A DNA stretch of 64,000 bases from a virus. The position numbers and the translations under genes were made by a program. The notes under the pieces were generated by a model, which was given only the letters and a program-made list of their open reading frames with translations, did no database searches and had not been told where the DNA came from. The DNA is taken from positions 55,282 to 119,281 of IMG/VR virus record IMGVR_UViG_3300008448_000009; one strand, written 5' to 3'. Shown one piece after another: positions 5,834 through 47,970 of the stretch (within the stretch, counting starts at the first letter, position 1; the number at the start of each line of letters is the position of its first letter).

Positions 5834-7708
5834 TTATCTTAATTCGTTGATGTTAAATGTTTGAACACCGTCAACTCTTAAGTGACCATAGAAACGGTTG
5901 TTTACGACTTTTTTCGCGTAACGAGTCATAATACCTTTCACTGGAGCGAAGTTGAATGGGTTATACATTGTAGGTGTCAATTGTAATGGCACGTATGGAG
6001 CATAGATGTATCCAGTGTCTAACAATGATTTACCTTTGTGACCAATGATGATAGAGTAAGATGGTGCATAAGGGTCACGGTACACTTGGTAACGTCCACT
6101 TAAAGAACCGATTCTTTCAATACCCATGTTGTATTGGTCTTGCTCTGGGTTAGCGTCACTTACGTGGAAGTATTCTAAGTCATCAAAGATAGCTGAGATT
6201 TCTGAAGATACTACGATAAAGTTAGCACCACCTCTAAGAGTTGATTTATGGATTTGAGCAGAGATTTGGTTTAATTTAGTAATTAAAGTTTGGTTCCACT
6301 CTTTTTGTGTGTATGGTGCAGCAGCATTACCTGTAGCTTTTCTCCATCCGTTGTAGTCCCAACGTAATTGCCATGCAGCAGCTTTACGTAAGTCTCTAAG
6401 GATTTCACGGTCGATTTCAGCAGCAACTTGCTCAGAAAGCATTGCAGTTAATTCAGCTTCAGCGTCGATGTTGTGGAATGCACTAACGTCTTGCGCTAAT
6501 TCTGGAGACCATGTAGCTCTTAATTTTCTTTCTTCAACTGATACTACAACTTCATCTAATCTGAAAGATACTTCTCCCATTTCAGTTTCAAGTTCTAATG
6601 TAGCGTATTCAGCCCAAGTTACTACTAAACCAGCAGTAGTTGTGATAGCAGATACAGTAGTAGCAGAAGCACCTACATAACCATCGTATGTTGCAGTACC
6701 TACAGCAGCAGCACCTGTACCAGCAGTTGAACCAGCTGGGTGAGTCAAGTCTAACTCAATGTACATAACACCGTTTGGTGTAGTTAAGATTGGGTAACCA
6801 CTAGCGTTTACGTTTTTAGTTTGAACAATACCAGTTCCATATTTTTGAGTTACAATACGGAAAGGAACTTCACCACCAGCAGCAACAACTTGGTTACCAT
6901 CACGGTCTAAAATAGCGTTAGTAGAAACAACTTTCAACGAAGCCAAGAATGACTCAGTATCCATGTTGTTACCATCAGGACCAGTTAATACTTCTCTACC
7001 AGCAGCAGAACCAGCACCACCTGTGAAACCTGAAATAGATAAAATAGCGTTTCTCACAGAACCATCAGCAGCAGTTGGGAATGAGGTACTTGGAGGTGGA
7101 ACACTAAATACACCATTAGAGTTTAATGTTTGAGCGTTAGCGTTAGTAATGTTGTAAGTTACGATAGTAAGAGTACCTTTTGATTGGTCGAATAAACCAT
7201 CGTTGTAGAAAATATCATACAAGTTTTTAGCCATCCAAGGAGTTACTGTACATGTAGCATCAGCACCTTTAACACATGATGGAATACCATCATACCCCAT
7301 TGAAGTGTGAGCTGAGAAAGTAGGTCCATCACCGTTATAGTAATCACCACCAACACCAGCAGCGTTTACACGCTCTGAAGTCAAAGGCACAAAGAAGAAC
7401 AATTTACCGATTGGCATGTTCATAGCTTGTACTGATACAACGTCATTAGCTAATAATTTTGAGAAAACTCTACGTACAATTGGGAATACTACAGTTTCAA
7501 AAGAACCTGAGCTACCAGCAGTAGTTGATTCAGTCAATAATGAAGACGCTTGGTTTTCATATAATTGAGCGATGTTTTCTTTAACGTGGCCTCTAAGACC
7601 ATCTAGGAATCCTAATGAATCCCATTTTTGTTGAGTCTCTAAACGGATAGCCTTCATGTGGTTTAATCCGATGTTACCAACTTGTCCAGATGTTAATAAA
7701 TGTGACAT
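5834..7708 (-). CDS. major capsid protein (T4 gp23-like)
   Basis: LYENQ, VQAMNMPIG, RKLRATWSPELAQD, AEIDREI, YAPYVPL, GIMTRYA motifs; LLTE-S cleavage site near residue 60. Confidence 0.95.
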   Translation of the reverse strand: MSHLLTSGQVGNIGLNHMKAIRLETQQKWDSLGFLDGLRGHVKENIAQLYENQASSLLTESTTAGSSGSFETVVFPIVRRVFSKLLANDVVSVQAMNMPIGKLFFFVPLTSERVNAAGVGGDYYNGDGPTFSAHTSMGYDGIPSCVKGADATCTVTPWMAKNLYDIFYNDGLFDQSKGTLTIVTYNITNANAQTLNSNGVFSVPPPSTSFPTAADGSVRNAILSISGFTGGAGSAAGREVLTGPDGNNMDTESFLASLKVVSTNAILDRDGNQVVAAGGEVPFRIVTQKYGTGIVQTKNVNASGYPILTTPNGVMYIELDLTHPAGSTAGTGAAAVGTATYDGYVGASATTVSAITTTAGLVVTWAEYATLELETEMGEVSFRLDEVVVSVEERKLRATWSPELAQDVSAFHNIDAEAELTAMLSEQVAAEIDREILRDLRKAAAWQLRWDYNGWRKATGNAAAPYTQKEWNQTLITKLNQISAQIHKSTLRGGANFIVVSSEISAIFDDLEYFHVSDANPEQDQYNMGIERIGSLSGRYQVYRDPYAPSYSIIIGHKGKSLLDTGYIYAPYVPLQLTPTMYNPFNFAPVKGIMTRYAKKVVNNRFYGHLRVDGVQTFNINELR

Positions 7709-7741
7709 AATTTGTTTTTTTATTTTTTTATTGGGTTATTG

Positions 7742-9085
7742 TTATCTTTTTTCAACTCTGTGAATTAAATCCATAATTCTTTTAGTTGAAGGGTCAACAT
7801 ACGCAGTGCTTTCGTTTAATTGTTTTGAAGTACTAGTAGTTGCCTCTTTTATAATTTTGTTTTCTACTGATTCTGAAATTGGTTTTCTTGATTCCAATTC
7901 ATTAGCAATAGTTTTGTAAAGTCTTTTTGACTCTTTAAGGTTTGTTACCTCTTCATCAAATCTTTTGATTATAGTTTGTTTCTCACCTTTTGTTGTAGAA
8001 TGTTCCATGAACAATCTTGTTACATAAGTCAAATTGCTGTTGAACACTACAGTCTCTACTAACTTAGTTCTAAATTCTTTAAGAGCTACTCTGAATTCTT
8101 CATTTTCACCTTTAAGTTTAGTTGCTTCAGTTAATAAACTGTTATATTTTTTAGCGGTTTCAGAAACTATCTGTTTTGCTTTGTTTACTGTTTCATCGAT
8201 TTTTTCACCGTCTACAGATTTTTTACCGTATCCTAAGTGAGAAGCACCGTGTCTTCTTTGACCTTGATGACCAGCACGACCATTAACGTTACCGATGGTT
8301 TCATCCAATTCTTCCTCTTCTTCGTCCAATTCTTCCACTTCGTTCAAATCTTCCTCTTCGTCCAATTCTTCCTCTTCGTTTAAATTTTCTTCTTCATCAG
8401 ATTCCTCTTCAGATTCTTCACCTTCTTCGTCTTCTTCTTCACCTTCTTCGTCATCACCTTCTTCGTCATCTAATTCGATTTCGTAGTCCATGTCTTCACC
8501 TTCTTCGTCTTCTTCTTCACCACCCATTTCAGCTGGTTCTAAATCTAACTCTTCATCGTCACCCATTTCTGGTTCTGAAGATGGAGCTTGACCGTCAAGT
8601 TTAACAACATATTCTCCTGGTTCTGTAATGTTTAAGTGAAGTTCATCACCTACAATTTCAATTTCGTCTTCGCCACTTAATTTTTTGTAAATTGCGATTA
8701 CTTCATCGTCTGGTGCTCCAACCATATCGATTTCATCTGATGCGTCTATATCATCCATTCCTATGCCACCCATTTCGTCGCCCATGTCGTCGCCCATGTC
8801 AGTATCAGGTTCTAAACCACCTTCTACATCACCCATGTCGTCACCCATTTCGCCACCAAGGTCTTGGCCATCGATATCATCTCCACCTAATGTTTCAACG
8901 TCGTCACCCATTTCGGTGTCAACATCTTCTTCTTCGTAAACCTCCTCTAGAGATTCTTTCACAACACCATTAATTTCTTCTTTCGCAACCGAACGAAGTA
9001 TTTCTTTGGTATTGGCATTAAGAGCATTCTGAATATTGTTAATATCCAAAAGTGCTTCTTCAAGTATAGATTTTTTATCTGCCAT
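7742..9085 (-). CDS. prohead core/scaffolding protein (gp22-like position)
   Basis: Very acidic, coiled-coil C-terminus, many LxE sites, between protease and capsid genes. Confidence 0.7.
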   Translation of the reverse strand: MADKKSILEEALLDINNIQNALNANTKEILRSVAKEEINGVVKESLEEVYEEEDVDTEMGDDVETLGGDDIDGQDLGGEMGDDMGDVEGGLEPDTDMGDDMGDEMGGIGMDDIDASDEIDMVGAPDDEVIAIYKKLSGEDEIEIVGDELHLNITEPGEYVVKLDGQAPSSEPEMGDDEELDLEPAEMGGEEEDEEGEDMDYEIELDDEEGDDEEGEEEDEEGEESEEESDEEENLNEEEELDEEEDLNEVEELDEEEEELDETIGNVNGRAGHQGQRRHGASHLGYGKKSVDGEKIDETVNKAKQIVSETAKKYNSLLTEATKLKGENEEFRVALKEFRTKLVETVVFNSNLTYVTRLFMEHSTTKGEKQTIIKRFDEEVTNLKESKRLYKTIANELESRKPISESVENKIIKEATTSTSKQLNESTAYVDPSTKRIMDLIHRVEKR

Positions 9086-9202
9086 TTTATCTTTTTTTAT
9101 ATGTTTTTTATTAGATAAACAATGAGATGTTTCTCATTTGTTAATAAATATGCGTGTTTTTATCAAAAATCACTTTTTTGATAAAAAAATTATTATTTTT
9201 AA

Positions 9203-9928
9203 TTAGTCATTCAAAAAATTATCCAACTTATCATTCAATGATTCAGTCATAAGTGGTTTCTTAATCTCGGTATTTTCCACATATGGGCGCGCTTCTTCAT
9301 GATTTTTAAAAATCCAAGCGTCTGGTGTGGAAGGTGCTGTAACAACATCCCAACAAATAATTTCGAAATCGTCTTGTACAATTTGTTCTCCATTTTTACC
9401 CTCTTTCAACGAACCAACACCTCTAGAAGACACACCAATTTTTATTCTGTTTCTTAATAGATTAGCTACTTCATCACCTTTGGTAGATACGATACCCAAA
9501 TTAATAAACCCAGGTGTCATCAATATCTCCATCTTACCCATAAGTGTTTTACCTTCCCACCATGTTTCTACAATGTTGTGAGAAATTCTATCACCAGCAA
9601 TAATAGAAGACTCAGGGTGGTCTAATTCACCCACAGCTCTACGCTCACGTATGGCTTCTTGATATATTTGATTTTGTTTTTTTAAAATTGATTCTGGATA
9701 AATTCTACCATTACGATTAAGTACATCATATTTTTGTAGTACCACATATACAATTAGCGGCTCAACTATTGCTAGTTTGCTGCCTGTGTCTAATTTTTTT
9801 ATTTCGTTTATGAATGCTTGGTTTCTTGGTTCATCAGGGTTGATGTACCCAGCGTCTTGTTCGATTAGACCACCCCAACCAGTTTCTCCACGTTTTAATA
9901 CTTTGAAGTCTTTATAATTTATATCCAT
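9203..9928 (-). CDS. prohead protease (T4 gp21-like)
   Basis: NRNGRIY, GELDHP, IGVSSRGVGS, DVVTAPST. Confidence 0.92.
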   Translation of the reverse strand: MDINYKDFKVLKRGETGWGGLIEQDAGYINPDEPRNQAFINEIKKLDTGSKLAIVEPLIVYVVLQKYDVLNRNGRIYPESILKKQNQIYQEAIRERRAVGELDHPESSIIAGDRISHNIVETWWEGKTLMGKMEILMTPGFINLGIVSTKGDEVANLLRNRIKIGVSSRGVGSLKEGKNGEQIVQDDFEIICWDVVTAPSTPDAWIFKNHEEARPYVENTEIKKPLMTESLNDKLDNFLND

Positions 9929-9998
9929 AATTTGCTACCTTATAGATATAAATATATTACAATAACAAAAAAACCCCAGTATTACTACTGGGGCTTAA

Positions 9999-10445
9999 TT
10001 ATATTTTCTTTTTATGATATTTAAAATTTTCATCTAACTCAAAAACTTTATTAATTAACATCGATGTAACATCATTTAGTGAAGTTTTTGTTTTGTCAGA
10101 TATGATTGAAATTTCTTCAGTTTGAAACAATGTTATTTCACAACTCATAAAACTACGTTTTCCGTATTTTATACCAGATTCTCTGATATCCAAATCAACA
10201 ATCGTGTTGTTTTTTAAAAAACCAGAATTTTCGTTTAAATTAAAATAATTAAACAAATCTTGTTTTAATTTTTTATTTATGTCTTTAATTACTCTAGTGT
10301 AATTAACATCCTCATCTTGATTTAGTGGTTCGGCCCACGCTGAAATGTTTATATAAACCGATTTTGGGTTTTTATTATCAACACAACCATAGACTATATT
10401 GTAGTTATTATGGTTGTCATTTTTAAATTGTTTTCCTGTCTTCAT
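9999..10445 (-). CDS. hypothetical protein
   Basis: 148 aa ORF; TAnnTTTG promoter at 10465-10472 and downstream hairpin near 9973-9994. Confidence 0.6.
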   Translation of the reverse strand: MKTGKQFKNDNHNNYNIVYGCVDNKNPKSVYINISAWAEPLNQDEDVNYTRVIKDINKKLKQDLFNYFNLNENSGFLKNNTIVDLDIRESGIKYGKRSFMSCEITLFQTEEISIISDKTKTSLNDVTSMLINKVFELDENFKYHKKKI

Positions 10446-10500
10446 ATTCTAGTAAATTAATATACAAATATAATAAAATTCCAGGAATTAGTCAACAACC

Positions 10501-10842
10501 TTAATGACCTAATTTACCCCAAATTGAAATAATAATTCCAACAACAATTTGTACGAAAGACATAATAGCTATAGCGGCTACCCAACGATTTTTTTGACGA
10601 TACAATTCATCTTTGGCTTCCTTCATTTGACTAGGTGACCAAACGTCGTTTACCTTGGCTATCCACGATGTGTTAGCTTCAACATTTCTTTCAATATTTT
10701 TTACGTCGTTTAACTTAAGATTCATTTCGTTAAGTTTTTTATCAATATCGGTACGCATTTTTTCTTGATTTTCAGCCAAACGTTCTAATTCTTTTAGAAC
10801 TAGTTTGCTATAGTCTGCCCATGTATCTTTACTTTCAGCCAT
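10501..10842 (-). CDS. coiled-coil protein with C-terminal transmembrane helix
   Basis: WVAAIAIMSFVQIVVGIIISIW. Confidence 0.6.
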   Translation of the reverse strand: MAESKDTWADYSKLVLKELERLAENQEKMRTDIDKKLNEMNLKLNDVKNIERNVEANTSWIAKVNDVWSPSQMKEAKDELYRQKNRWVAAIAIMSFVQIVVGIIISIWGKLGH

Positions 10843-10848
10843 TTTTTT

Positions 10849-11082
10849 TTATAAAATTTTAATACTGTTTAATATTGTCTTTATTGTTGCACACATATTT
10901 TCATAACATTTCATTTTTGTTTTAGGTGTTGTAGATTTTTCAATCTCTATAACACCTTGTTCTACAATATTTTTTAATTGTTTAACTACTTTTTTATATT
11001 CTATTTCAGAATTTTCTTCTTCACATATTTGGTTTGTCAATTCTCTTAATTTTAGAATATTTTCACTTGGAACACTTTTCAT
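10849..11082 (-). CDS. hypothetical protein
   Basis: 77 aa in head operon. Confidence 0.5.
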   Translation of the reverse strand: MKSVPSENILKLRELTNQICEEENSEIEYKKVVKQLKNIVEQGVIEIEKSTTPKTKMKCYENMCATIKTILNSIKIL

Positions 11083-11104
11083 TAGCTTTTTCGTTTAATC
11101 AATG

Positions 11105-11869
11105 TTATACTAGACTATTTTTTAATTCTAACAATTTAGAAATATTTTTGTTAAAGTTTTCGTTTATTTCAATTTTATCATTTAAAAGTTTATCTTTAAC
11201 TCGCAATAATCTATCTTTTGTTTCTAAATCAGAATCAGTTAATTTAACATTAATCATATCAATACATTCTCTTACAACACCTGAATAAACTTCTTCTTTT
11301 TTAGTATCATCCGAATCAATTAGAACTTTTAATACCTTTTTTTCAGTCTCACTTAAAGAAGCGTATTTTTCGTTATACTTATCCACCATAATTGTTGATA
11401 ACATACTGTTAGGTAAATCAAACGATTCTGTAACAGTTTTTGTTTTATTATTTTTCATATGGTTTATAATGTAAGCAGTAGCTTCCACTATAGTGTCAAT
11501 ATTTTTTGCTGTTTTCTTTGTAAAAATAAGCTTGGTAATATTTTCATGTAACACAATATTACTATCAGTAGATTCTGTTTCAAAAATAATTGGGTCAGCC
11601 AATTTAAAATTAGCTTCCATGATGTCTTTTTTAGAGAATTTTTGTAACAAAGCTATGTTTTCTTGAAGGAATAAATTAGCTTTTAATTCGTTTTCTTCAA
11701 TCTTGTTTTCTATGTTGTCATAAACCAAAAATTGAGTTTTTAATATCTCATTTTCTTTGATTGTTTTAACGTAATGTTTGAAAAGTTTTTTGTTTTCTTC
11801 TTTATTAGAAACAATACCCTCAACCATTAATTCGTTAAATTTGTTTTTTATTTTACCAAAATTTTGCAT
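11105..11869 (-). CDS. hypothetical head-module protein
   Basis: ATG at 11869 (MQNFGK) just after late motif 11886-11893. Confidence 0.65.
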   Translation of the reverse strand: MQNFGKIKNKFNELMVEGIVSNKEENKKLFKHYVKTIKENEILKTQFLVYDNIENKIEENELKANLFLQENIALLQKFSKKDIMEANFKLADPIIFETESTDSNIVLHENITKLIFTKKTAKNIDTIVEATAYIINHMKNNKTKTVTESFDLPNSMLSTIMVDKYNEKYASLSETEKKVLKVLIDSDDTKKEEVYSGVVRECIDMINVKLTDSDLETKDRLLRVKDKLLNDKIEINENFNKNISKLLELKNSLV

Positions 11870-11914
11870 AGGTTTATTTTTATTAATAAATATAACTAAT
11901 CGATACAAAAAACG

Positions 11915-14017
11915 TTATTCATCTAACATTTTATTTATGTCTTTTATCATAGAATCGATATCGTTATTTATTTTAATTGTTTTGTCGTAAATTTTAACGT
12001 TTTCGTCTACAACGTTTGCACCACTATTAACTGATTCAATTAATTTGTTGACAAATCTACCTTGATATTTGGTAGTTCTATCTTCTAATTTTTTACCAAG
12101 TTGCGTTTTACGTTCCGTCAATAAATTATCAGCTTTCTTTAGCATCTCTGTTAATCCAGCTTCTGTATCAGTACCAGCTTCAGCACCGCCAGCTTCAGCA
12201 CCGCCAGCTTCAGCACCGCCAGTTTCAGCACCACCAGCTTCAGCTCCAGCTTCAGCTCCAGCTTCAGCGCCACCAGCTTCAGCACCGCCAGCTTCCTCAC
12301 CAGCACCAGCTTCTCCAGAGAAATCTAGGTCTTCACCACCTAGACCACCACCACCGAATGAACCACCTAGGCCGCCTCCACCGCCACCGCCACCAGCGGC
12401 ACCGCCTTCACCTTCAGCTCCACCACCGCTACCACCAGCTAGAGCTGCTTGGTAATCACCATAGATTCTATCAACGGTGTCAAACATACCAGTATGTTTA
12501 ATAACACTAGCAGTATTAGCTAATTCAGCCGCAGCGGCTTTCTCCATACGTTGTTCAAGTAAATCTTGTTTGATTTCATCATCAGCCCAACCCATGATTT
12601 CTCTATGAGCTCTAGTCCATGACATAGCAGCCAATCCATTTCCAATGTCTGAGGTAGCGTCTTTAAGTAAAGCAACTTTAGCAGCCAAATGTTCAACTTT
12701 AAGCATTTCAGCTTGTGTTGATGGGTTGTTAAGTGTAAGTGTAAAGTTATCCAAATCTTCTTCAAACCCTAAAATATACAAATGAATAATAGCTATCTTG
12801 TTAAGTTCTTGAAGCATTGATTGTTGAATACGGTTAATCGTTCTAGAAAAACGAATATCTTGTAGTGCTAGGTTTTTACCATCACCAGCAGTTTCTTCAA
12901 ACCCTAAGAATGGTTTTGGGACACGTAACGCAGTGAATAAGTTTCTTTGCAAATATTCAATATCAGCAATTTGGTCCAAGTTCGATGCACCAGGCAAAGT
13001 CTCAATCGGGTTAGGTGCGTCTTCACTTCTAACAGGGATAAAGAAATCTTGGTCGTTAGACAATTGATTATATCTTAAATCTATTTGACCAGTCTGTGGG
13101 TCAACAATTGGCATACGTTTAAATCTATCTGCAATTTCGTTTACATATTGCGCAACGTCAGCGTCATCAATGTTACCAACATAAATTTTATATACCCTAC
13201 GTTCTGGTGCTCTAGTAACACGATATACCAGCATTGAATCTTCAGATAAAATAAGTTGTTTCCAAATACGTCTAACTTTTTCCAATACTGATGTACCATA
13301 AGGTAAACGTCTATCATCACCCAACAAACGGAAGTGAGCAATTTGCCATGAATTGAATTCAATATCGCGACCTCTCCAATAAAATTTAACTTTATCGTTA
13401 TCATTTTCGTTAATAGACGTTTGTTCTCTACCACTAATCAAATCATACAATCCAGCTTCTCTACGTTCCATTTCGTAGTTAGGCATCTGTTTGGCACCAA
13501 GAACACCTTGTTTATCGCTGATATTTAAGTATATGAAATTATCTCCATATTTACAAGTGTTTCTAGTCCACATTGGTAAAGTTGTGTGTAAATCCAAACG
13601 GTTGAAGAATAAATCTTCTATAATACCTTTAACACGTTTACTATCAGAATAAACGTTAAGTACTCTACCATTGTTATTTACAGTTGTTGATTCTTCCATC
13701 ATAACATCCAAAGCGGCCGCAATAGTTGGGTAAAACTCCATAGCTTCAAAATCTGAATATGAACCAACACGTGTTGTTTCATAATTAATAGATTGTTGAA
13801 ACATACCATTTTCTACTTTCTTCCAAACTTGCCCTAAGTATTTGTTTTGTTGAGCTTGAAGTTTTGCAGTTTCGTATTCTTCTTTACTTGTTGTTTTTAA
13901 TAACTCACCCTTGCCAACATTATAACGTTGTGTTGGTTGTTTTTGAGTTGGTTGTGTGTAATTAGGGTCAAGCACTCTACCTAACCTCTGAAATATTGTT
14001 AAATTTTCTTTTGCCAT
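11915..14017 (-). CDS. portal vertex protein (T4 gp20-like) with Gly/Ala-rich C-terminal extension
   Basis: EDSMLVYRVTRAPERRVYKI, DFFIPVR, IETLPGASNL, DIEYLQRNLFTALRVP. Confidence 0.92.
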   Translation of the reverse strand: MAKENLTIFQRLGRVLDPNYTQPTQKQPTQRYNVGKGELLKTTSKEEYETAKLQAQQNKYLGQVWKKVENGMFQQSINYETTRVGSYSDFEAMEFYPTIAAALDVMMEESTTVNNNGRVLNVYSDSKRVKGIIEDLFFNRLDLHTTLPMWTRNTCKYGDNFIYLNISDKQGVLGAKQMPNYEMERREAGLYDLISGREQTSINENDNDKVKFYWRGRDIEFNSWQIAHFRLLGDDRRLPYGTSVLEKVRRIWKQLILSEDSMLVYRVTRAPERRVYKIYVGNIDDADVAQYVNEIADRFKRMPIVDPQTGQIDLRYNQLSNDQDFFIPVRSEDAPNPIETLPGASNLDQIADIEYLQRNLFTALRVPKPFLGFEETAGDGKNLALQDIRFSRTINRIQQSMLQELNKIAIIHLYILGFEEDLDNFTLTLNNPSTQAEMLKVEHLAAKVALLKDATSDIGNGLAAMSWTRAHREIMGWADDEIKQDLLEQRMEKAAAAELANTASVIKHTGMFDTVDRIYGDYQAALAGGSGGGAEGEGGAAGGGGGGGGLGGSFGGGGLGGEDLDFSGEAGAGEEAGGAEAGGAEAGAEAGAEAGGAETGGAEAGGAEAGGAEAGTDTEAGLTEMLKKADNLLTERKTQLGKKLEDRTTKYQGRFVNKLIESVNSGANVVDENVKIYDKTIKINNDIDSMIKDINKMLDE
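12163..12300 (-). repeat. in-frame 12-15 bp tandem repeats encoding AEAG(G)
   Basis: ccagcttcagcaccg-type units in portal tail. Confidence 0.8.
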
Positions 14018-14067
14018 AGCATTATATTTTTCTTTAATTATAATAAAAAATTTGTGAAATTAAATAG

Positions 14068-14307
14068 TTATTCCACATAATCACAGGCCACATAAGCAAT
14101 ACGTTGTTGCTCGCTGTTAGCCAAAACAATGTTATACGAATATGTTGATATCCAATCTTGACCTTGTGTGTTAGGACGTGCATCACAAAAATAATTTCGT
14201 CTACTATTTACAGCTGGTTTTCTTTCGAAATTATTTGGTAGTGGTGACCATTTATATAAATTTGGACCAGCACCTTTACGAACAAATACTTTTTTACCTA
14301 AACCCAT
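14068..14307 (-). CDS. hypothetical protein
   Basis: 79 aa between terminase and portal. Confidence 0.5.
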   Translation of the reverse strand: MGLGKKVFVRKGAGPNLYKWSPLPNNFERKPAVNSRRNYFCDARPNTQGQDWISTYSYNIVLANSEQQRIAYVACDYVE

Positions 14308-14309
14308 GA

Positions 14310-16082
14310 TTATCTTCTTTTATTTAAGTTTCCAAATAGCCACATATGTTCACCTCTAGGGTCTTGAATATTTCTATATGCTCTATGTTCTGGATTTATT
14401 TTTTTTGTAACCTCACCAGTTGCTGGGTTAATTACGTTAGTTGTTGTTTGAGTATTTGATGAACCACCCAACCAACTATTTAACATTGCTTTATTTTGTT
14501 TTTCTAATCTTTCTAAATTCTTAAACGAATGTTCAACAACCCACAAAGCCATACCTAACGACATAAGCAAATCATCATGATACCCTTCCATGTGGTCTGG
14601 TCTACCATTTTTATAAACAAATGTTTTCATTTCTGATGTAAGTCTACTTGAACGGATTTTAACACCGTTGGTTCTAATTTTGTATTCTAAATTAGAAATC
14701 ATAGGTAAACGAACGTTGGTTGCGTGAAATCCTGGGATTTTATTATCTTTGTTGAAATGTGTCAACTCTCTTTGTCTAGCAGAAAGAATTTTACCGTTGG
14801 CATTGTCGTAATGCAAACGTTTGTAATCAAATTCTAATAATTTCAACACTGTAGATACACCCATACCACCAGTCACATCGACTACAGTGTATGCTTTGTA
14901 TAAATTACCGTATTCTTCTACGATTTGAGCCAATAAATCTGGCTGTATCTTACCTTGGTACTCCATAACCTCTTCCATGGTTGTAAAATCAACTATAACG
15001 ATTGTAGAGGCGTCTTCACCATCACCTCTGGATACATCGACACCCATAATGTATTGATGACCTTCTTGTGGTTCTTCCCAAATCCAAATTTCATTCTCAG
15101 CACCCAAAGTATATTTAGGTTCCATAACATTATTTTTATTTTGAAAATCAATATGTTCTTCAGCAATAACGTTACCACCAGACCCAATGAACGATACATC
15201 TAACTCTTGTGCAATCATTTTGGCATCGTTGTTCATACCCAAACACATTTCTTCATACCATGATGACGTTGGTTTCCAACCATCACTTAACATTCTCTCG
15301 TATGATTCATATGTGAATTCATATTCAATTTCTACATGGTCTTCTTTTAACCACCTAAGGTCTTTGTTGTAACGCAAATCCTCATACCATTTCATTTCAA
15401 TAATATTGAAGTTGTTCTTTTTCTTTTTGGCTTGGTCATAAGTTTTGTAGTATAACGCATCCATACCTTTTGGTGTAGAAATAAGAGTAGCTTTACCTCC
15501 AGTACCTAACGCTGTAAGAGCAGCACCAAATACTTCGGCACCATTGTCAATATACGCAGCCTCATCCATTACAAGATAAGTCGGTGTAAATCCACGCAAT
15601 GCGTCTTTAGATGTTGCAACCGCTTTAACACGGCTACCATTAGGAAGTCTGATTTCTTTTTTAGAGTCTGTAATGAAGATTGATTTAGCTTCATTCTTAG
15701 CGTTACCATAGTATTCGGCACCCCATACCCATCTAGGTAATTGAGCCAAAAAATCTTTAATTTTTGCTAGGAACTCAAAAGCTAACTCTTGTTTGTTCGC
15801 GATGATAAGAACCGCCTCTGGGTTGTCCTCATCGGCCCACCCAACTTTTATTGCCATATATGCTGCTGTTGTAGTAGACACACCAGCTTGTCTAGGTTTA
15901 GTAACTAAATTAAATCTGTGTTTATCGTATGCTTGTATAATTTCCTTTTGTCTAGGAAATAGTTTGAAAGGTACAAAACCCTCTTGCGTTTTGTCAAACG
16001 TTTCCAAATACGTTTCAATGGCGTAAACTGGATTCATTAGACACTTTGTATATTCTTTAAATATTTCTTGTGTTGTCAACAT
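14310..16082 (-). CDS. terminase large subunit (T4 gp17-like)
   Basis: KPRQAGVST, LVMDEAAYI, ISTPKG, GVDVSRGDGED, HDDLLMS. Confidence 0.93.
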   Translation of the reverse strand: MLTTQEIFKEYTKCLMNPVYAIETYLETFDKTQEGFVPFKLFPRQKEIIQAYDKHRFNLVTKPRQAGVSTTTAAYMAIKVGWADEDNPEAVLIIANKQELAFEFLAKIKDFLAQLPRWVWGAEYYGNAKNEAKSIFITDSKKEIRLPNGSRVKAVATSKDALRGFTPTYLVMDEAAYIDNGAEVFGAALTALGTGGKATLISTPKGMDALYYKTYDQAKKKKNNFNIIEMKWYEDLRYNKDLRWLKEDHVEIEYEFTYESYERMLSDGWKPTSSWYEEMCLGMNNDAKMIAQELDVSFIGSGGNVIAEEHIDFQNKNNVMEPKYTLGAENEIWIWEEPQEGHQYIMGVDVSRGDGEDASTIVIVDFTTMEEVMEYQGKIQPDLLAQIVEEYGNLYKAYTVVDVTGGMGVSTVLKLLEFDYKRLHYDNANGKILSARQRELTHFNKDNKIPGFHATNVRLPMISNLEYKIRTNGVKIRSSRLTSEMKTFVYKNGRPDHMEGYHDDLLMSLGMALWVVEHSFKNLERLEKQNKAMLNSWLGGSSNTQTTTNVINPATGEVTKKINPEHRAYRNIQDPRGEHMWLFGNLNKRR

Positions 16083-17461: not shown

Positions 17462-18504
17462 TACTTAATATCTTTAATTTTTATTGTTTTTACTACTTTT
17501 CTATTTTCACTAATTGGTGCCAAATCTTGTTCTGGTGGCATTTGATTACCTTGTGCTTGACCAGTTTGTGGTTCGCTTTGTTGTTGTGTTTTAGTTTTAG
17601 CTAAATCTTTAATACCAGTAACTAAACTACCTAAACCAGCTCTAGGAACACCAATAAGTTCAGCAAACGCAGCGATAACTTCTCTTTGAGCTACCTTATT
17701 CTGTTTAATAGTGTCTATAACAACTGATGGGATTCTTTTAGAAATCAAAACCATAAGCTTTTTAGCTTTAGCATGCATATCCTCATCAGTTTCTTGACCA
17801 GTAGGTGTTACTTCATTTAATCCTTGTTTTTGACCACCACCAAAAACTTTACTATGAAAGAATTTTTTAAACTCTGATAAACCCATGTATTTTTCATTGT
17901 CAGACATTGGGTATTTTGCCAAGTCTTGAATGTTTTGGAATTTTTTAAATTTACCAGTTGTCTCGTCAACTATAAAGTGTTTATATTCACCCAATCTTAA
18001 TGAATCTGGGTTATCACCTTTAGGTTGTTCCGTTGGTTTAGTTTCAGGTTTAACTTCTTTTTTTTCAGCAATAGAAGCTTCCATCGTTTCACGCATTGGC
18101 CCAGCAATAGTCTTCTCAAAATGGTCAACTGGGTGAATTATATTTTCACCAGATTCGTTTAAATCATCAAAACAATATACACCTAAAACGATTTGTTTCT
18201 CTGGTGTAATACCCCTAACCATTTGATATTGTTTACCACCTATGCTAAATGGTTGTGATGTTTTATTTTTTTCATCTTTAACATTAGACAAGTATTTTAT
18301 AGTTGCTTGGTCTTGTGGTTCAATAACAGCTTCAGCTTCTTCACCAACCACTTTAACGTTAACACCTTTCATTTTAGACAATGACGGCCCAACTTTTGGT
18401 AAATCTTTAGCTGATACGGTTAGATTAGCACCAGAACCACCACCACCAGATGTACTAGATGTGGTTAAACTAGTGTCGTATTCTTTTAATTTATTTTTGC
18501 TCAT
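17461..18504 (-). CDS. putative internal head protein
   Basis: 347 aa with LKE/LNE/ISE sites. Confidence 0.6.
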   Translation of the reverse strand: MSKNKLKEYDTSLTTSSTSGGGGSGANLTVSAKDLPKVGPSLSKMKGVNVKVVGEEAEAVIEPQDQATIKYLSNVKDEKNKTSQPFSIGGKQYQMVRGITPEKQIVLGVYCFDDLNESGENIIHPVDHFEKTIAGPMRETMEASIAEKKEVKPETKPTEQPKGDNPDSLRLGEYKHFIVDETTGKFKKFQNIQDLAKYPMSDNEKYMGLSEFKKFFHSKVFGGGQKQGLNEVTPTGQETDEDMHAKAKKLMVLISKRIPSVVIDTIKQNKVAQREVIAAFAELIGVPRAGLGSLVTGIKDLAKTKTQQQSEPQTGQAQGNQMPPEQDLAPISENRKVVKTIKIKDIK

Positions 18505-18901
18505 GTGTTTTAATATTATAATTCAATATTAGGTCTTTTTCATATAATTTTTCTTCAACTTCACCAATAAGTTCGCCAAATCTAAAACATAGCCTTGTCT
18601 CTGGGTAAGCATCATATGCGTTTATATTTTCCCAAGCCAAAGCTATAACACCGTCAACAGCATCCCAAACAGCAAATGTATCACTATTTTGAACAACATC
18701 CAAATTCAAATCAGACTCAAGTCTTCCAACTTTTTTGATGAATTTTTCATGTGGCGCTTCTGGTCTTCCAGATGCTGGAAACGTATCCCATTCTTCCCCA
18801 TCAATGTCTTTTGTGGTATCAGAAAAAATAAACTCGTAGATAAAGTTACCTTTGTAATCTTTACCTACTCTGTTTACATATATCAAATACATTTTATTCA
18901 T
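18491..18901 (-). CDS. hypothetical protein
   Basis: ATG at 18901 (MNKMY) overlapping upstream stop. Confidence 0.6.
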   Translation of the reverse strand: MNKMYLIYVNRVGKDYKGNFIYEFIFSDTTKDIDGEEWDTFPASGRPEAPHEKFIKKVGRLESDLNLDVVQNSDTFAVWDAVDGVIALAWENINAYDAYPETRLCFRFGELIGEVEEKLYEKDLILNYNIKTHEQK

Positions 18902-20753
18902 TATTTTTAGCTTTTGGGTCTGGTTGAGTTTCAATTTCTGGCAAGAATGTTTTTTGTCTTCTTGTCGGTTGAACTGGTTGTGTTTCCGCTGGTTTTGTTT
19001 TTGGGCCAGCTGGTAATGTTTGTGGTTCCGCGTTGTTCATATTATCTTGATTTAAACTTTCGTGTAATTTATTTAACAATGTTGTTTTGTCAAATATACT
19101 AAATTTATTTGGATTTATCAAGTTTTCTTCAACTATTTTAGAAACTGGTTTCTTAGACCACATTTTACATGACCAATATTTAGGTTTTGTTCTGTCTTTA
19201 GCTTGAGCACATTTATGTCTAGCTCTAAAAGATTTTCTTCTTTTTGGGTCATCTCTTTTGATTTCCATATTAGGGTCACCAAAATTAACTTTTACCACAT
19301 TACCTTTTTTGTTTCTAACATAAACTTTGAATTTTTTAACATCACCTTTCATTGGTTTACCTAATGGTTTCCCATCATATTTTCCTTCAGCCACCATACG
19401 TTCAACATTACCATATTCATCCTCATAACCACCTTCAGTATCACCATCATAAGCGTTTAAAGTGTTGGCTAAGAAATGGTAAACTTCTTCCATATCATCA
19501 TTAGCTGTCGCAATGTGGTCCAAAGCCCAACCATGACCGTCTGAAAGAATTCTATCAACCATGTTTTTATCCATATCTAATAATTCACCAGAAGCGTGTG
19601 CTATGGTTTTAAGGCTAGACCAAAACATATAATTGTTTGATTCACCCATATTACCTTCCATCATACCATCAGTTTCTAAGTTTCCTTCTAAGAAATGGTA
19701 TACTTCTTCAATATCGTCTTTAGATGTAATAACATGTTCAAAAGCCCATTGATGACCGTCAGCAATCAATCTATCAACCTCTGATTTATCCATATTCAAC
19801 ATTTCCATAGCATCATCATGAATACCTTTAAGATTTAACCAAAACATATAATTGTTTGATTCACCTTCAATTTCTTCGGTCAATTTATTCCATTGTTTTT
19901 TGTCTGGATAATCTTCATCACCTGGTTTTGCTGGTGATTCACCTCTTTCTCTTTTAGCACGAATATTATCCCATAATCCTTTTTCTTCATCTAAATTTTC
20001 ATCGATTGGAACACAATTTGGAACTTCTTTACCATTCTTTTCCTTCATACCAACTTGTTTGTATCCTTTCCAACATGGTTTATTCTCTTCAAGTCTATTT
20101 TCTTCCATAAACTCTGGACTACCTTCAGGTGCGAAAATACTCATTCTTTTTGGGTTTTCCAAAAATAAATCTTCATTCTCATAAATTTGATAAGTATTTT
20201 CTCCAAGGTCTTCTTCATCTGATGAAAAATCAAAATCATCGTCAGCAGCAGCCCCGTCATCGGGTCCACCTTGAGTATCATTTCCAAAATCGGTGTTATC
20301 CTGATTATCCGAACCAGAATCTTGTGCGTCATCTTTACCAGCGCTATTAATTTTTTTAATTATATCTTTTCTGTCGTTTTCATCCATTTCAGATGTGTGA
20401 GTCGCAGATATCACCGAGTTTATTGCAAACTTCTCTAAATCAAAATCTGGTTGACCAGATTCTTCAGAATAGCTTCTTAATGATTGACCTAATTTACCAC
20501 TCAACTGTTCAATGAATTTTTTTGGGTCTGTTTCTTCATCAGCATCAACACCCGCATCAAATGGTTCTTTGTCAAATGGTGCGTCGTTTGCTGGAGCAGC
20601 TTCTTCCTCACCACCAAAATCGCCAAAACCAGCGTCATCAGCTGGTTCTGTCATAGGTTCAGCTGGAGCAGGTGCAGGCGCAGCGGGTGCCGCTGGTGCA
20701 GGTTTGTCCAACTTTAATGTGTATTTTTTAGCTTCGTTTAAAGTTTTTTTTTT
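18894..20753 (-). CDS. modular acidic head protein, probably reached by -1 frameshift from 20738..22018
   Basis: Frame is open from the A10 run (KKTLNEAKKYTLKLDKPAP); only a TTG start otherwise; duplicated ESNNYMFW...EEVYHFL module. Confidence 0.65.
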   Translation of the reverse strand, partial: KKKTLNEAKKYTLKLDKPAPAAPAAPAPAPAEPMTEPADDAGFGDFGGEEEAAPANDAPFDKEPFDAGVDADEETDPKKFIEQLSGKLGQSLRSYSEESGQPDFDLEKFAINSVISATHTSEMDENDRKDIIKKINSAGKDDAQDSGSDNQDNTDFGNDTQGGPDDGAAADDDFDFSSDEEDLGENTYQIYENEDLFLENPKRMSIFAPEGSPEFMEENRLEENKPCWKGYKQVGMKEKNGKEVPNCVPIDENLDEEKGLWDNIRAKRERGESPAKPGDEDYPDKKQWNKLTEEIEGESNNYMFWLNLKGIHDDAMEMLNMDKSEVDRLIADGHQWAFEHVITSKDDIEEVYHFLEGNLETDGMMEGNMGESNNYMFWSSLKTIAHASGELLDMDKNMVDRILSDGHGWALDHIATANDDMEEVYHFLANTLNAYDGDTEGGYEDEYGNVERMVAEGKYDGKPLGKPMKGDVKKFKVYVRNKKGNVVKVNFGDPNMEIKRDDPKRRKSFRARHKCAQAKDRTKPKYWSCKMWSKKPVSKIVEENLINPNKFSIFDKTTLLNKLHESLNQDNMNNAEPQTLPAGPKTKPAETQPVQPTRRQKTFLPEIETQPDPKAKNNE

Positions 20754-22018
20754 AAATCAGCGATAGCTTCTTTAATTTCTTCAATAGACATTTCGTCAAT
20801 ATTCATTTCTTCATCCATGGTAGCACCAGCGATTTTATCAGCATATGTGATTTTATCTTTAGGTTCAGCCAAAGCAGCAAATTCTTTATCTTTATCTGAC
20901 ATTTCTTCATTAACATCTGGATATTGTCTGTTAAAGTAATCTCTAGCTTTATCCATACCAGTAGACAATTTTTGAGAAATAACATTTTTCAAATCTCTAC
21001 CAGCATCACCTAACAATTGAAGTAATTCAGCAGCAGACATATTGTCTAATCTATCCATCAATTCATCATTTGACATCTCATCTTCTTCGTTCATGTTTCT
21101 TAACATAGACAAATCGTCACCATCAATTTTACCATTGTGGTTCATATCAATTTTACTTTGATTACCGTGTAGTTCTTCTTCCATGTAACTTTCATCATAC
21201 ATGTTTTCTTCCATGTAACTTTCATCATACATGTTTTCTTCCATGTAACCTTCATCAGTTTTTTCAAAAGTTTCTGGGTTTCTACCTTGTTTGTTAGCAG
21301 TAGCGTAATAAACTTCTTCACCTTTATCGGCACCATATTGGTCTTTCATTTTGTCCATAACTGGTTTATCAAATTCTAACATGCTGTCGATATATTTTTC
21401 TTCTTCAGTCATTTCCATATCATCACCAAACATACCTTCATCAACAAATCCGTTGCCTGTCATTTCAGCAAATCCAGCCCAACCTTCGTCAATTTTTTTA
21501 ACTTTTTCAATGTCGTTTTTAGTTTTACCGTTAGCCAAGTTATCACCAAAACCATCTTCTTCAGAACCTTCTTTAGACTCTTGTTTTAAGTCATGACCTT
21601 TTTTGTCTACAATGTGTTTAGACGCAAAGTTTTCTTCGTTCAACAAATCATCGTCTTCAAATACGTTGATGTTGCTATCTGTACCATAAGCTTCTGCCAA
21701 AGATTTAAACGTTAAGTTTAAATGTTTAGTTGCTTTAGCATATGATGGATAAGCTTCTTTCTTTTTGTTTTGCAAACCACCAATGTATTTAAAATCTTCA
21801 GTTACAAGTTTTGAAGTTTTATCTGATACTTTTATGTAATATTCGTGATTTTCTCTAACGATAGCGTAAGCTTTACCGTCTGGACCCATTTTAGTCAATT
21901 CAATAACTGAACGAGAAACATTTTCATTGATAGGTGTAATACCCATAAGTTGTTTCATACGTTCATTGATTTCGTTTCCTTTTAAACCAACTGGGTTAAT
22001 TTTAAAATCTTTTTTCAT
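20738..22018 (-). CDS. acidic prohead core-like protein
   Basis: 426 aa, many (L/I/M)xE sites, ends DLKKKL on slippery TTTAAAAAAAAAAC. Confidence 0.7.
   Translation of the reverse strand: MKKDFKINPVGLKGNEINERMKQLMGITPINENVSRSVIELTKMGPDGKAYAIVRENHEYYIKVSDKTSKLVTEDFKYIGGLQNKKKEAYPSYAKATKHLNLTFKSLAEAYGTDSNINVFEDDDLLNEENFASKHIVDKKGHDLKQESKEGSEEDGFGDNLANGKTKNDIEKVKKIDEGWAGFAEMTGNGFVDEGMFGDDMEMTEEEKYIDSMLEFDKPVMDKMKDQYGADKGEEVYYATANKQGRNPETFEKTDEGYMEENMYDESYMEENMYDESYMEEELHGNQSKIDMNHNGKIDGDDLSMLRNMNEEDEMSNDELMDRLDNMSAAELLQLLGDAGRDLKNVISQKLSTGMDKARDYFNRQYPDVNEEMSDKDKEFAALAEPKDKITYADKIAGATMDEEMNIDEMSIEEIKEAIADLKKKL
21176..21257 (-). repeat. 30-bp in-frame tandem repeat (YMEENMYDES)
   Basis: ccatgtaactttcatcatacatgttttctt about 2.5 copies. 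Confidence 0.85.
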
Positions 22019-22041: not shown

Positions 22042-22284
22042 TTATAATTGAGTCGACCCTTGATAAACATCTTGGTTAGTACCTAATAACCAACAACCAG
22101 ACCCACCACTAACAGTTTTAACCCATATATTTATATTTGATGAACTAGCTACGCTTATATTTACACCGTTTACTGTTATATTACAACCAGCGCTACCACC
22201 ATATATTTCAGTATATGTGTGTGCTGTTAAATTAGCTGTTTGTGCTGACACAATAACATCATGTATGTTTGAAAAATTTGCCAT
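22042..22284 (-). CDS. small virion (decoration-like) protein, paralog of the N-terminus of 22563..24977
   Basis: YxxxYGGxxGCxxxxNG...IxVKxxSGGxGC shared; late promoter 22301. Confidence 0.6.
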   Translation of the reverse strand: MANFSNIHDVIVSAQTANLTAHTYTEIYGGSAGCNITVNGVNISVASSSNINIWVKTVSGGSGCWLLGTNQDVYQGSTQL

Positions 22285-22347
22285 ATTATTATGTTTCTTA
22301 ATAAATATTCATAAAAACAAAAAAAGCTCTATTACAGAGCTTTTTAT

Positions 22348-22563
22348 TTATATAGTATCTAAAAGATTATCTAAAAGATTATCTAATTCATTTGGAGAAT
22401 TGTTTTCGTTGCAAACAACACCAAAAGAACTTAACCTATCTTTTAATTCGTCTAAACTATTAAAATATTCTAAATTAGGTTGACCAGTTGAAACAACTTG
22501 ACCATCATTAAGTTCACAATAGTGAAATATATCTATTGAATTATGTGCTAAAAAATATGTCAT
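22348..22563 (-). CDS. hypothetical protein
   Basis: MTYFLAHN start overlaps DUF285 gene stop. Confidence 0.5.
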   Translation of the reverse strand: MTYFLAHNSIDIFHYCELNDGQVVSTGQPNLEYFNSLDELKDRLSSFGVVCNENNSPNELDNLLDNLLDTI

Positions 22564-26290: not shown

Positions 26291-27493
26291 TTAGTTACTT
26301 AAAGGTGCTTTAATTGCTGGATGTGATTGATAATTACTTAGTTGTATATCTTCTTCCAACAGACATCTACAAAAATCATCGTTTTTAAACCCTTCAAAAA
26401 CAGCTGTGGCGTCCAACGGACCTTCCCCACACGAACCATTTTGTGTTGGCCAGAATTCTGTGTTAATGTTTACTTTAGGCAACCCCATAGGTTCTCTACC
26501 AATTTGCTCTTTAGCTTGTTCAATATGGTTTGAATATAAATGAACATCACCCAAATTACCAATCAATTGGTCTGGAACCATGTTGACTGATTTTGCAATT
26601 ATTTCTAATAACAATCCATAAGAAGCAATGTTGAATGGTAAACCTAAGAATGTGTCTACTGAACGTTGATTCCACATTAAAGAGATTGCTCGTTTAGGGG
26701 TTTTTTCCCAATCTATTGTAATCGGAGACCTTAATTCACCATTTATACCATAAGAATCTTCAGTAAATACCGCACATAGCCTTTGTCTCTCTTCCATACT
26801 CAACTCTCTTGTATAAACTTGAAATCCATAATGACAAGGTGGAAGAACCATTTGGTCTAATTCACCTACATTCCAAGCATTTACCATTAGTCTACGAGAA
26901 TCTGGATTTGTTTTAAGGTCGTTGATTAGGTTTTGGATTTGGTCTATATGAACATTAGTATTAAACTTACTATACTGTTTTCCACCAATTGGGTGTCCAT
27001 CAATTTCACCATAACCCCATTGTTCTTCTAATGATGCCGATTTCCAATTTCTCCATTGTGCACCATACACAGGACCTAAATTACCATGTTCAGCAGCAAA
27101 TTCAGGTGAGTTTTTTATATTTTCAATAAATTGGTCAACTAGTAGTTTATAAGCTTTTTCAGGGTCTTTACATTTACTTCTCCAATCTTGAGTATAAGTT
27201 TTTTCAATATACTTCTTTGCTGCATCACCATCCCAAATATGACAATTATTATCAACCAAAAACTTAATATTGGTATCACCTCGTAAGAACCAAAGCAATT
27301 CGGTTACGATTGTTTTGAATGGCATTTTCTTTGTAGTCAAGAGAGGAAACCCATCTTTCATATTGTGACGTATTTGTCTTCCGAATACGCTAATGGTACC
27401 CGTACCAGTTCTATCACTTTTAGTAGTACCGTTATCAAGAATGTCTTGAAGAAGGTCTGTGTAATCTTTATCTAGGTTGTTTATAAATCCCAT
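26291..27493 (-). CDS. thyA: thymidylate synthase with insertions
   Basis: DRTGTGT, ELLWFLRG, GPVYGAQWR, LPPCH, NQRSVDTFLGLPFNIASY, DVHLYSNH. Confidence 0.95.
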   Translation of the reverse strand: MGFINNLDKDYTDLLQDILDNGTTKSDRTGTGTISVFGRQIRHNMKDGFPLLTTKKMPFKTIVTELLWFLRGDTNIKFLVDNNCHIWDGDAAKKYIEKTYTQDWRSKCKDPEKAYKLLVDQFIENIKNSPEFAAEHGNLGPVYGAQWRNWKSASLEEQWGYGEIDGHPIGGKQYSKFNTNVHIDQIQNLINDLKTNPDSRRLMVNAWNVGELDQMVLPPCHYGFQVYTRELSMEERQRLCAVFTEDSYGINGELRSPITIDWEKTPKRAISLMWNQRSVDTFLGLPFNIASYGLLLEIIAKSVNMVPDQLIGNLGDVHLYSNHIEQAKEQIGREPMGLPKVNINTEFWPTQNGSCGEGPLDATAVFEGFKNDDFCRCLLEEDIQLSNYQSHPAIKAPLSN

Positions 27494-47714: not shown

Positions 47715-47970
47715 AAAAAAGCCATATCCCCTTTTTTAAAGCCAAAAAATTCCCAAAAAAAATTTTTTGAAAAACCCATACAAAATATTTTATTTCGAAA
47801 ATTTCCCCATGAAAAAAAAAATCGGTAACATGCATATAAGGACCTCTTATTTTAAAACCAAAAAAATTTCCCAGGAAAAATTTCGCACACAGCATCATGG
47901 GCCGTGGTCTGCCCACATATGGGGGTACGGGGGGAGGGCGGTAACGGGGGAGGAGGGGTATAGGGAGGGG
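47715..47970. other. A/T-tract array followed by G-tract cluster (possible terminus/packaging or origin element)
   Basis: Repeated AAAAATT(T)CCC, then seven G-runs of 3-6 nt in 47921-47970. Confidence 0.55.

Follow-up and report, generated by a model that had tools for sequence, protein, structure and literature searches.

The DNA analysed here, referred to as the window, is the whole stretch of 64,000 nucleotides (nt) at positions 55,282 to 119,281 of IMG/VR virus record IMGVR_UViG_3300008448_000009, a 119-kb virus genome from a metagenome assembly with a CheckV completeness of 36%. On its minus strand, the open reading frame (ORF) designated ORF1 ends in a run of ten adenines (A10), and a second long frame, ORF2, is open behind this run in the -1 frame. 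The A10 run is very probably a conserved programmed recoding site that yields a 1041-aa ORF1-ORF2 fusion beside the 426-aa ORF1 protein. The production of a short and a long form of one protein by recoding is well known in phages, where it occurs in tail chaperones and in some capsid proteins. At the site described here, most expression would end at the TAA codon located one codon past the run to produce the 426-aa ORF1 protein. A fraction would be moved to the -1 frame within the run and would continue through ORF2, thereby producing the 1041-aa fusion with the sequence ...ADLKKK-TLNEAKKYTLKLDKPAP... at its junction.

ORF1 (20738..22018, minus strand) starts with ATG and encodes 426 aa with the C-terminus ...LKKKL*. 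On the minus strand, its 3' end reads GAT TTA AAA AAA AAA CTT TAA. The A10 run (20744..20753, minus; T10 on the plus strand) consists of the last base of the TTA codon and three AAA codons in the ORF1 frame. The interval in which a shift can take place is limited upstream by a -1-frame TGA directly 5' of the run (20757..20759, minus) and downstream by the TAA stop codon of ORF1 in the 0 frame (20738..20740, minus). Two registers of the heptamer A_AAA_AAA and the heptamer T_TTA_AAA lie in phase between these two stop codons. After the TGA codon, the -1 frame reads TTT AAA AAA AAA ACT TTA AAC GAA GCT AAA AAA TAC ACA TTA AAG TTG, and its translation across the run into ORF2 is KKKTLNEAKKYTLKLDKPAPAAP. 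ORF2 (18894..20756, minus) is open for about 619-620 codons from the -1-frame stop, and its own stop codon is at 18894-18896. The ORF finder lists it as 18894-20711 with 605 aa, starting at a TTG codon (20709-20711); this TTG is the first start codon of ORF2, and an ATG follows 19 codons further on. A shift anywhere in the run joins ORF1 residues 1-425 to TLNEAKKYTLK and the 605 residues listed for ORF2, which by arithmetic (425 + 11 + 605) gives 1041 aa. Two short elements stand just past the run in the -1 frame. TTA AAC GAA (20733..20741, minus) encodes L-N-E, a candidate cleavage site for a prohead protease. K-Y-T-L-K (20712..20726, minus), which lies 5' of any ORF2 start codon, belongs to a conserved K-[YF]-[KTM]-[LI]-K motif that is encoded by synonymous codons among relatives. 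An initial annotation of this DNA had already described the end of ORF1, the position of T10, the in-phase heptamers and the -1 reading into the 605-aa ORF, and every detail matched on re-reading; the two forms of 426 and about 1041 aa that it gave agree with the coordinates and the arithmetic.

The arrangement is conserved among related viruses. When IMG/VR was scanned with ORF2, 275 stretches that encode a relative were obtained, and 79 loci among them were retained; together with the window these make up 80 sources. The filter applied to these sources consisted of a long upstream ORF, three in-frame AAA codons in a run of at least 9 A, a stop codon not more than 60 nt past the run, and then, in the -1 frame, an ORF with 250 or more codons. 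It was passed by 69 of the 80 sources, corresponding to 55 distinct junctions of 160 nt. Among the 11 sources that failed, eight begin inside ORF2 at a contig end, one (L064) has A10 but only 71 ORF1 codons, and two are unrelated proteins sharing ORF2 modules. All 55 distinct junctions have ORF2 in the -1 frame, three in-frame AAA codons within a run of A9-A11, and the heptamer A_AAA_AAA, and the run itself is A10 in 48 of them, A9 in 5 and A11 in 2. In a larger set, to which loci were added through two fused proteins, the run is present in all of the 117 loci that carry the N-terminal signature of ORF2. The three in-frame AAA codons are found in all 66 distinct junctions of this larger set, and 65 of the 66 need a -1 shift (58 A10, 5 A9 and 2 A11), one is cut by a contig end and none needs a +1 shift. 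The search for the same KKK-stop arrangement in related phages that the initial annotation had suggested therefore has a positive outcome. The A9 and A11 variants of the -1 state arise through a base substitution at the edge of the run and leave the frame relation as it is. The distance between the -1-frame stop and the 0-frame stop ranges from 13 to 64 nt in the relatives. Within the set, terminase identity to the window goes down to 56% and ORF2 is between 263 and 932 codons long; the order of the genes, ThyA-p80-ORF1-ORF2-p147-p347-p424-terminase-portal, is kept throughout the relatives.

The conservation is also visible in the proteins. In an alignment of 30 ORF1 homologues, K423-K425 are invariant (30/30) and the neighbouring residues are variable. 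Among the ORF1 homologues listed, 119 of 125 end in KKK followed by not more than 12 residues; one of these 119 (P0123) is a fused form in which the KKK ending is coincidental. Of the two heptamers proposed in the initial annotation as slippery sites, A_AAA_AAA is conserved together with the A run. T_TTA_AAA is not, as the codon before the AAA triplet varies.

Codon usage at the site indicates that selection acts on the nucleotides of the run. All 165 Lys codons at the site in the 55 junctions are AAA, whereas elsewhere in these ORF1s AAA occurs 1605 times and AAG 231 times (87% AAA). Other KKK triplets in the same ORF1s are all-AAA in only 1 of 22 cases, and hence long A runs are avoided elsewhere in ORF1. 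The codon preceding the AAA triplet ends in A in 48 of the 55 junctions, as compared with a background of 0.38 for third positions, a preference that is seen in codons for Leu, Val, Ser, Pro and Gln.

ORF2 appears to be read from the run and not from a start codon of its own. In 15 of the 55 junctions, there is no ATG, GTG or TTG in the ORF2 frame for at least 90 codons, and in 26 of the 55 the first ATG of this frame is at least 100 codons in. Where an early start codon is present, it falls inside the conserved K-[YF]-[KTM]-[LI]-K(L) motif in 31 of 40 junctions. In the stretch that leads from the run to these start codons, residues K2-K4, K11, L14 and K15 are invariant in 31 aligned sequences, and the residues past the run are kept through synonymous codons (TTA, TTG, CTG, CTA or CTT for Leu; TAT or TAC for Tyr). 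The initial annotation had allowed that the homologues might always be fused or independently initiated, and with these counts neither turns out to be the case.

Naturally fused forms of the two ORFs also exist. Among the ORF1 homologues, 1092 are of ORF1-like length (234-746 aa) and only 5 are longer. P0045, P0121, P0122 and P0123 are ORF1-ORF2 fusions, in which KKK is followed at the junction by the -1-frame sequence. Three contigs that differ from one another (L143-L145) read TTA AAA AAA AAA AGA TTA ACT GAG at the junction (L143:~1170-1260, also L144 and L145), with A11 in a single frame; the run is thus kept despite the fusion, and both other frames close within a few codons. The nearest relatives of these three contigs (L118 and L146-L150) have A10 and need the -1 shift. 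Because fused genomes such as L143-L145 exist, the fused polypeptide is a viable natural product.

Searches for homologues of the two proteins gave little beyond uncharacterised phage proteins. ORF1 matched no Pfam and no PHROGs family, and ORF2 together with ten long ORF2 variants matched only PHROGs or Pfam families of unknown function or stayed below threshold. Neither tblastn with ORF1 nor megablast with the locus found a match in 50,697 phage records, a collection from which records very near the window's own genome may be left out. A profile search of PDB returned nothing for ORF2 and only weak calmodulin/EF-hand matches for ORF1 (best E 0.0039). Foldseek with the ORF2 model had no hit in PDB at E <= 0.001 and only uncharacterised phage proteins in BFVD, and the ESM Atlas gave only viral 'hypothetical protein' clusters, with DUF5824 and DUF5872 as weak leads. 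Both proteins are predicted to be largely disordered, and their AlphaFold models are poor, with a mean pLDDT (predicted local distance difference test) of 43.6 for ORF1 and 51.5 for ORF2. ORF1 begins with a conserved domain of about 128 residues (~1-128), which is followed by an acidic, variable middle part that includes an EF-hand-like loop, and its C-terminal part is helical. ORF2 comprises a linker rich in Pro and Ala, a helical core that is conserved (DPKKFIEQL...), an acidic segment and, at about residues 300-433 of its model, a pair of confidently predicted helical repeats. It also has small modules that are shared with other proteins of numerous phages from marine and fresh water. These modules (18894-20711, about residues 200-520; L001:6993-8945) include a Cys-x-Cys knuckle (CWKGYK...PNCVP), GLWDNIRAKR and a basic KFKVYV...RRKSFRARH segment, and they look like promiscuous modules of unknown function. 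In the phage records, ORF2 has matches through its small modules only. Gene 18 of Methylophilales phage Melnitz, the best of these matches, was rejected as an orthologue of ORF2; it is a different protein sharing only the small modules, and its N-terminus is putatively nucleotidyltransferase-like by reading of its sequence.

ORF1 and ORF2 are on the same strand as a T4-like head module that spans 5834..16082 of the window. This module, all on the minus strand, comprises the terminase large subunit (14310-16082), the portal protein (11915-14017; Portal_T4, E 2e-72), a T4 gp21-type prohead protease (9203..9928; Peptidase_S77, E 5.4e-26; PHROG 207, E 4.6e-40), a scaffold-like protein that is very acidic (7742-9085) and the major capsid protein (5834-7708; Gp23, E 4e-72). 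The identity of the terminase to that of any cultured phage is at most 31%. ORF1 and ORF2 are located upstream of the terminase gene, with three ORFs in between, and lie outside the portal-protease-scaffold-capsid block. The assignment of ORF1 as a T4-like prohead core gene in the initial annotation is not supported, since ORF1 has no match in Pfam, PHROGs or cultured phages and does not lie between the portal and capsid genes, where the protein at 7742-9085 is a much better candidate for a scaffold. The L-N-E that the same annotation pointed out at the junction is real, and its equivalent [LIV]-x-E is found at the same place, 1-2 residues before the KYKLK motif, in all 55 junctions. T4 gp21 cuts after L/I-X-E (PMC9026906). 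[LI]-x-E occurs within 12 residues before KKK in 40 of the 55 junctions, as compared with 0.30 of background segments, and the head block, with 31% of the scanned residues, has 16 of the 25 [LI]-N-E occurrences. These motif counts are not independent of phylogeny. Within the ORF1 alignment, I17-x-E19, I30-x-E32 and L126-x-E128 are invariant or nearly so.

A role in the head would also agree with the conserved position near terminase and portal and with the predicted disorder of both proteins. These observations can be combined in a model in which ORF1 would carry protein into the prohead and ORF2 would be a variable cargo. The gp21-type protease would cut at the [LIV]-x-E past the junction to release an ORF2 product that starts near the KYKLK motif. 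Such a carrier-cargo-protease arrangement could well be right, although we would not rely on it. The slip rate would set the ratio of the short to the long form; the suggestion of the initial annotation that the site could fix the ratio of core to cargo-bearing forms is reasonable. A fuller, Gag-Pol-like version, in which exchangeable ORF2 cargo, with modules and a length that vary from lineage to lineage, is fused by slippage to the carrier ORF1, released by the protease in the capsid for injection, and adjusted in amount by the run length (A10 split, A11 fused) as an evolutionary dial, is more speculative and is put forward tentatively.

There is a substantial possibility that the recoding is real and that the proteins are not internal to the head but belong to another part of the virion or act as a non-structural factor, in which case the [LIV]-x-E sequences would not be cleavage sites. 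Neither protein has homology to any T4 core or internal protein, both genes stand outside the portal-to-capsid block, the ORF2 modules also occur in unrelated contexts such as that of Melnitz, and motifs of three residues are weak. However, the position near the terminase and portal genes is conserved, the [LIV]-x-E is present in every distinct junction at a fixed distance from KYKLK, and [LI]-N-E is enriched in the head block. These features argue for the head-internal role of the carrier and its cargo.

As for the machine that slips, RNA polymerase is somewhat favoured, since all runs have 9 A or more and a structure at the usual spacing is lacking. In this mechanism, slippage of RNA polymerase on the T10 template would lengthen the run by one A in some of the transcripts. 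Nine A or T are enough for efficient slippage of the bacterial enzyme, whose hybrid measures 9-10 bp (PMC5009743). The run has at least 9 A in every junction (66/66), none has 7 or 8, and it is A11 in the three fused loci. The fused A11 layout with nearby stop codons in both other frames resembles dnaX of Thermus thermophilus (PMC5009743). Homologues differ by one base in the run (A10 in L118 and L146-L150, A11 in L143-L145), and those with the extra base are read in a single frame, a pattern that is looked for at sites of transcriptional slippage. In the 55 junctions, no RNA structure is found 5-9 nt 3' of the run, and only short, non-conserved stems abut it. At the junction, none of the Rfam families reaches its gathering score.

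The main alternative is a purely ribosomal -1 frameshift, in which tandem tRNA-Lys would slip on A_AAA_AAA (or possibly on T_TTA_AAA in the window) while the transcripts faithfully carry A10. We assign it appreciable weight without preferring it. The in-phase heptamers are present, two overlapping registers could account for the preference for A at the preceding wobble position (48 of the 55 junctions), and both shifting and sliding of ribosomes on A runs have been described (PMC5009743). A GC-rich hairpin is also predicted about 30-36 nt 3' of the run in many loci, with a mean z of -2.7 over the 55 junctions and a z of -3.5 in the window, where it spans 20640-20690 (minus), about 33 nt 3' of the run, in a Pro/Ala stretch. 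However, such a hairpin starts beyond the usual 5-9 nt and lies within GC-rich Pro/Ala codons, and it may just reflect GCN/CCN codons in an AT-rich genome. Moreover, runs of 7 or 8, which would be enough for a heptamer, are absent from all junctions, and the junction is without an Rfam match as stated above. Of the frameshift proposed in the initial annotation, the programmed move to the -1 frame at the A run is borne out by the relatives; the ribosomal mechanism had been assumed, and a run of at least 9 without structure at the usual spacing fits polymerase slippage at least as well. The remaining weight may go to both machines acting together or to neither. The polymerase and the ribosome routes give the same protein.

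The other alternatives concern the recoding itself, and the state of the run in independent assemblies bears on them. Logan contigs of three DNA sequencing runs and one RNA sequencing run were aligned to 19700-21800, and no insertion or deletion was reported in the contigs of any of the four. One contig (X3 record 6, 20514-20977) bridges the A10 run with 0 differences and 0 gaps, and three more (X4 records 13 and 14, X6 record 20) bridge it with 6-7 substitutions and 0 gaps. X3 comes from the same study as the possible source sample, and X4 and X6 come from other studies. Contigs of three other sequencing runs therefore carry A10 and not A11, which answers the question raised in the initial annotation about the length of the homopolymer.

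The tract could be hypermutable at the DNA level, with replication slippage toggling genomes between the split (A10) and the fused (A11) state, so that the fusion would come from a subpopulation of genomes and not from recoding. The fused A11 genomes L143-L145 and the fused proteins P0045 and P0121, which are known from protein sequence alone, would fit this explanation. However, the -1 state is found in 65 of the 66 distinct junctions and a +1 shift would be required in none, and the A9 and A11 variants of this state arise through flanking substitution and not through insertion or deletion, which holds the frame relation fixed. The four contigs from three sequencing runs bridge the run without an insertion or deletion, although contigs hide minority variants. 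A toggling tract is highly unlikely in place of the recoding site.

That ORF1 and ORF2 are two ordinary neighbouring genes is hardly credible. ORF2 would then start at TTG 20711 or at the ATG 19 codons later, and the A run would be incidental. Both start codons do lie near the 5' end of ORF2 in the window, and A/T-rich runs are common in the genome. However, ORF2 lacks a start codon over its first 90 codons or more in 15 of the 55 junctions, most of the early start codons elsewhere sit within the KYKLK(L) motif, and other lineages use TTA, CTG, CTA or CTT at the Leu position compared. The sequence between the run and the candidate start codons is conserved at the protein level, in-frame fusions occur naturally, and A9 runs are avoided elsewhere in ORF1. 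An assembly or sequencing error that hides a true A11 and a single 1041-aa gene can be dismissed, for although homopolymers invite errors and the window was assembled from a metagenome, X3, X4 and X6 all have contigs that span the run with 0 gaps, and A10 is present in 58 distinct junctions.

Recoding, mechanism and function taken as a whole are likely to be the best explanation of the locus, and several points tell against it. A/T runs of at least 10 are frequent in the 119-kb genome, with 6 observed and about 8 expected under a first-order Markov model. Counted from the -1-frame stop, a TTG lies 15 codons and an ATG 34 codons into ORF2 of the window, and some independent initiation of ORF2 may take place here. 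The fused variants with A11 may also reflect variation in the DNA. A_AAA_AAA is a valid slippery heptamer, of which A10 offers two overlapping copies. The contigs of the RNA sequencing run (X20) cover 20794-21008 and 20029-20068, which lie outside the A run. The strict T4 motif [LI]-x-E is present at the junction in only 41 of the 55 cases, the others having Val. For ORF1 and ORF2, nothing informative was obtained from Pfam, PHROGs or PDB sequences, nor from Foldseek (with the ORF2 model) or the ESM Atlas. The role in the head is plausible from context and short motifs, and three-residue motifs are weak evidence. With regard to the frequency of such runs, this is the only one of the six A/T runs of at least 10 that closes a long ORF (441 codons) and is followed by a long ORF in the -1 frame (619 codons). 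The run alone is unsurprising by chance, and judged by the junctions compared here its conservation in relatives is far beyond chance.

The five other A/T runs, of 10-12 nt, are at 47812, 56820, 57740 and 58850 of the window and at C1:23141 of the genome; no long ORF is open in any frame there, and they are apparently intergenic. Runs of A8-A9 at p147/p347 (window 18491-18504, minus; L054:6741, L059:1818, L060:7282 and L082:6133 in relatives) were considered as a second, +1 site and rejected, as these are ordinary ATG AAA AAA AAT... starts that overlap the preceding stop codon. The T4 late-promoter octamer TATAAATA has 23 matches in the window against about 11 expected. On the coding strand, one match (22345-22352, minus) is 61 nt upstream of p80 and another (22128-22135, minus) is 110 nt upstream of ORF1; these matches are too weak to serve as evidence of late expression. 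There are no tRNA genes in the window.

Three neighbouring genes show peculiarities of their own. Of the 624 aa of the major capsid protein (5834-7708), only residues 326-612 are covered by the best stretch of the Pfam Gp23 match (profile 76-359), and about 200 Gly/Ala/Thr-rich residues ahead of it look like an insertion domain. The 80-aa p80 (22042-22284, minus) resembles the N-terminus of an 804-aa DUF285-repeat protein (22563-24977, minus), and in most relatives the best tblastn matches of the two are at the same place or within about 15 nt of it; both a short and a long version seem to be present in the window. The Pfam match of the thymidylate synthase (26291-27493, minus, 400 aa) is in two stretches, residues 9-243 corresponding to profile positions 1-173, which suggests that this enzyme carries an insertion.

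The clade that carries the site is large and deep, with the 1092 ORF1 homologues and related contigs of up to 362 kb. Gene callers split the locus and give ORF2 a false start, which is often a Leu codon, and as a result the 1041-aa product is missing from protein databases. The split A10 and the fused A11 layouts offer a natural comparison for polymerase versus ribosome slippage and for the evolution of the ratio between the two forms. If the carrier-cargo reading is true, it would be a new route by which T4-like phages load variable proteins into the capsid, and it would bear on the recruitment of internal and ejected proteins in giant phages.

The mechanism belongs with known recoding at homopolymers and heptamers, as in dnaX, insertion sequence (IS) elements, secretion genes of Shigella, the phage tail chaperone and capsid extensions. 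In Thermus thermophilus, dnaX gives tau and gamma by transcriptional slippage on a 9-nt homopolymer (PMC5009743). The site in the window resembles it in having a coding homopolymer of about 9-10 nt, a shared N-terminus, other frames that close fast, and split or single-ORF layouts. Unlike Thermus dnaX, the usual genomic state here is split, so that slippage would lead to the long form; the gene family is an unrelated one and belongs to a phage. With -1 frameshifting in E. coli dnaX and IS elements, where A_AAA_AAG acts together with stimulators (PMC5009743), it shares a slippery site of Lys codons, the -1 shift and a ratio set by efficiency. In contrast to these, there is no hairpin at 5-9 nt here (an upstream Shine-Dalgarno-like element was not systematically searched), and A_AAA_AAA lies within a longer run that is conserved in its full length.

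Among phage genes, lambda G/GT, gene 10 of T7 and T3, and Lactobacillus phage A2 (PMC5009743) likewise combine conserved recoding of a morphogenesis gene with a minor, C-terminally extended form. Unlike the proteins in those systems, ORF1 is neither a tail chaperone nor a capsid protein; it has 426 aa and a 616-aa extension and is placed between ThyA and terminase. A chaperone of the G/GT type was rejected, as the neighbours are ThyA, p80, p147, p347, p424 and terminase, and ORF1 with its 426 aa is not a small gene between tail tube and tape measure; no tape-measure gene was identified among the neighbouring ORFs scanned. The proposed fusion of cargo to a particle-targeted protein by a frameshift, with a set ratio, packaging and separation by a protease, is similar to retroviral and totiviral Gag-Pol (PMC5009743). 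It differs from Gag-Pol in that the virus is a tailed double-stranded DNA phage, the cargo has no assigned function, and packaging and cleavage are inferred only.

The T4 internal proteins and Alt (PMC9026906, PMC3012670) are similar in the gp21-type protease, in the conserved [LIV]-x-E at the release point and in a cargo that varies among phages. Unlike the T4 internal proteins, to which they have no sequence similarity, the products described here would be targeted by a 425-residue protein attached through recoding and not by a 10-residue N-terminal peptide. No description of this site was found in the literature searched, a search whose scope excluded most subscription journals and supplements (for example the frameshift lists of PMC10885494). 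Set beside the known systems, the site is new as an instance, in that it concerns a different gene family in an uncultured clade of T4-like giant phages, adds an unusually long extension, and occurs in coexisting split and fused layouts.

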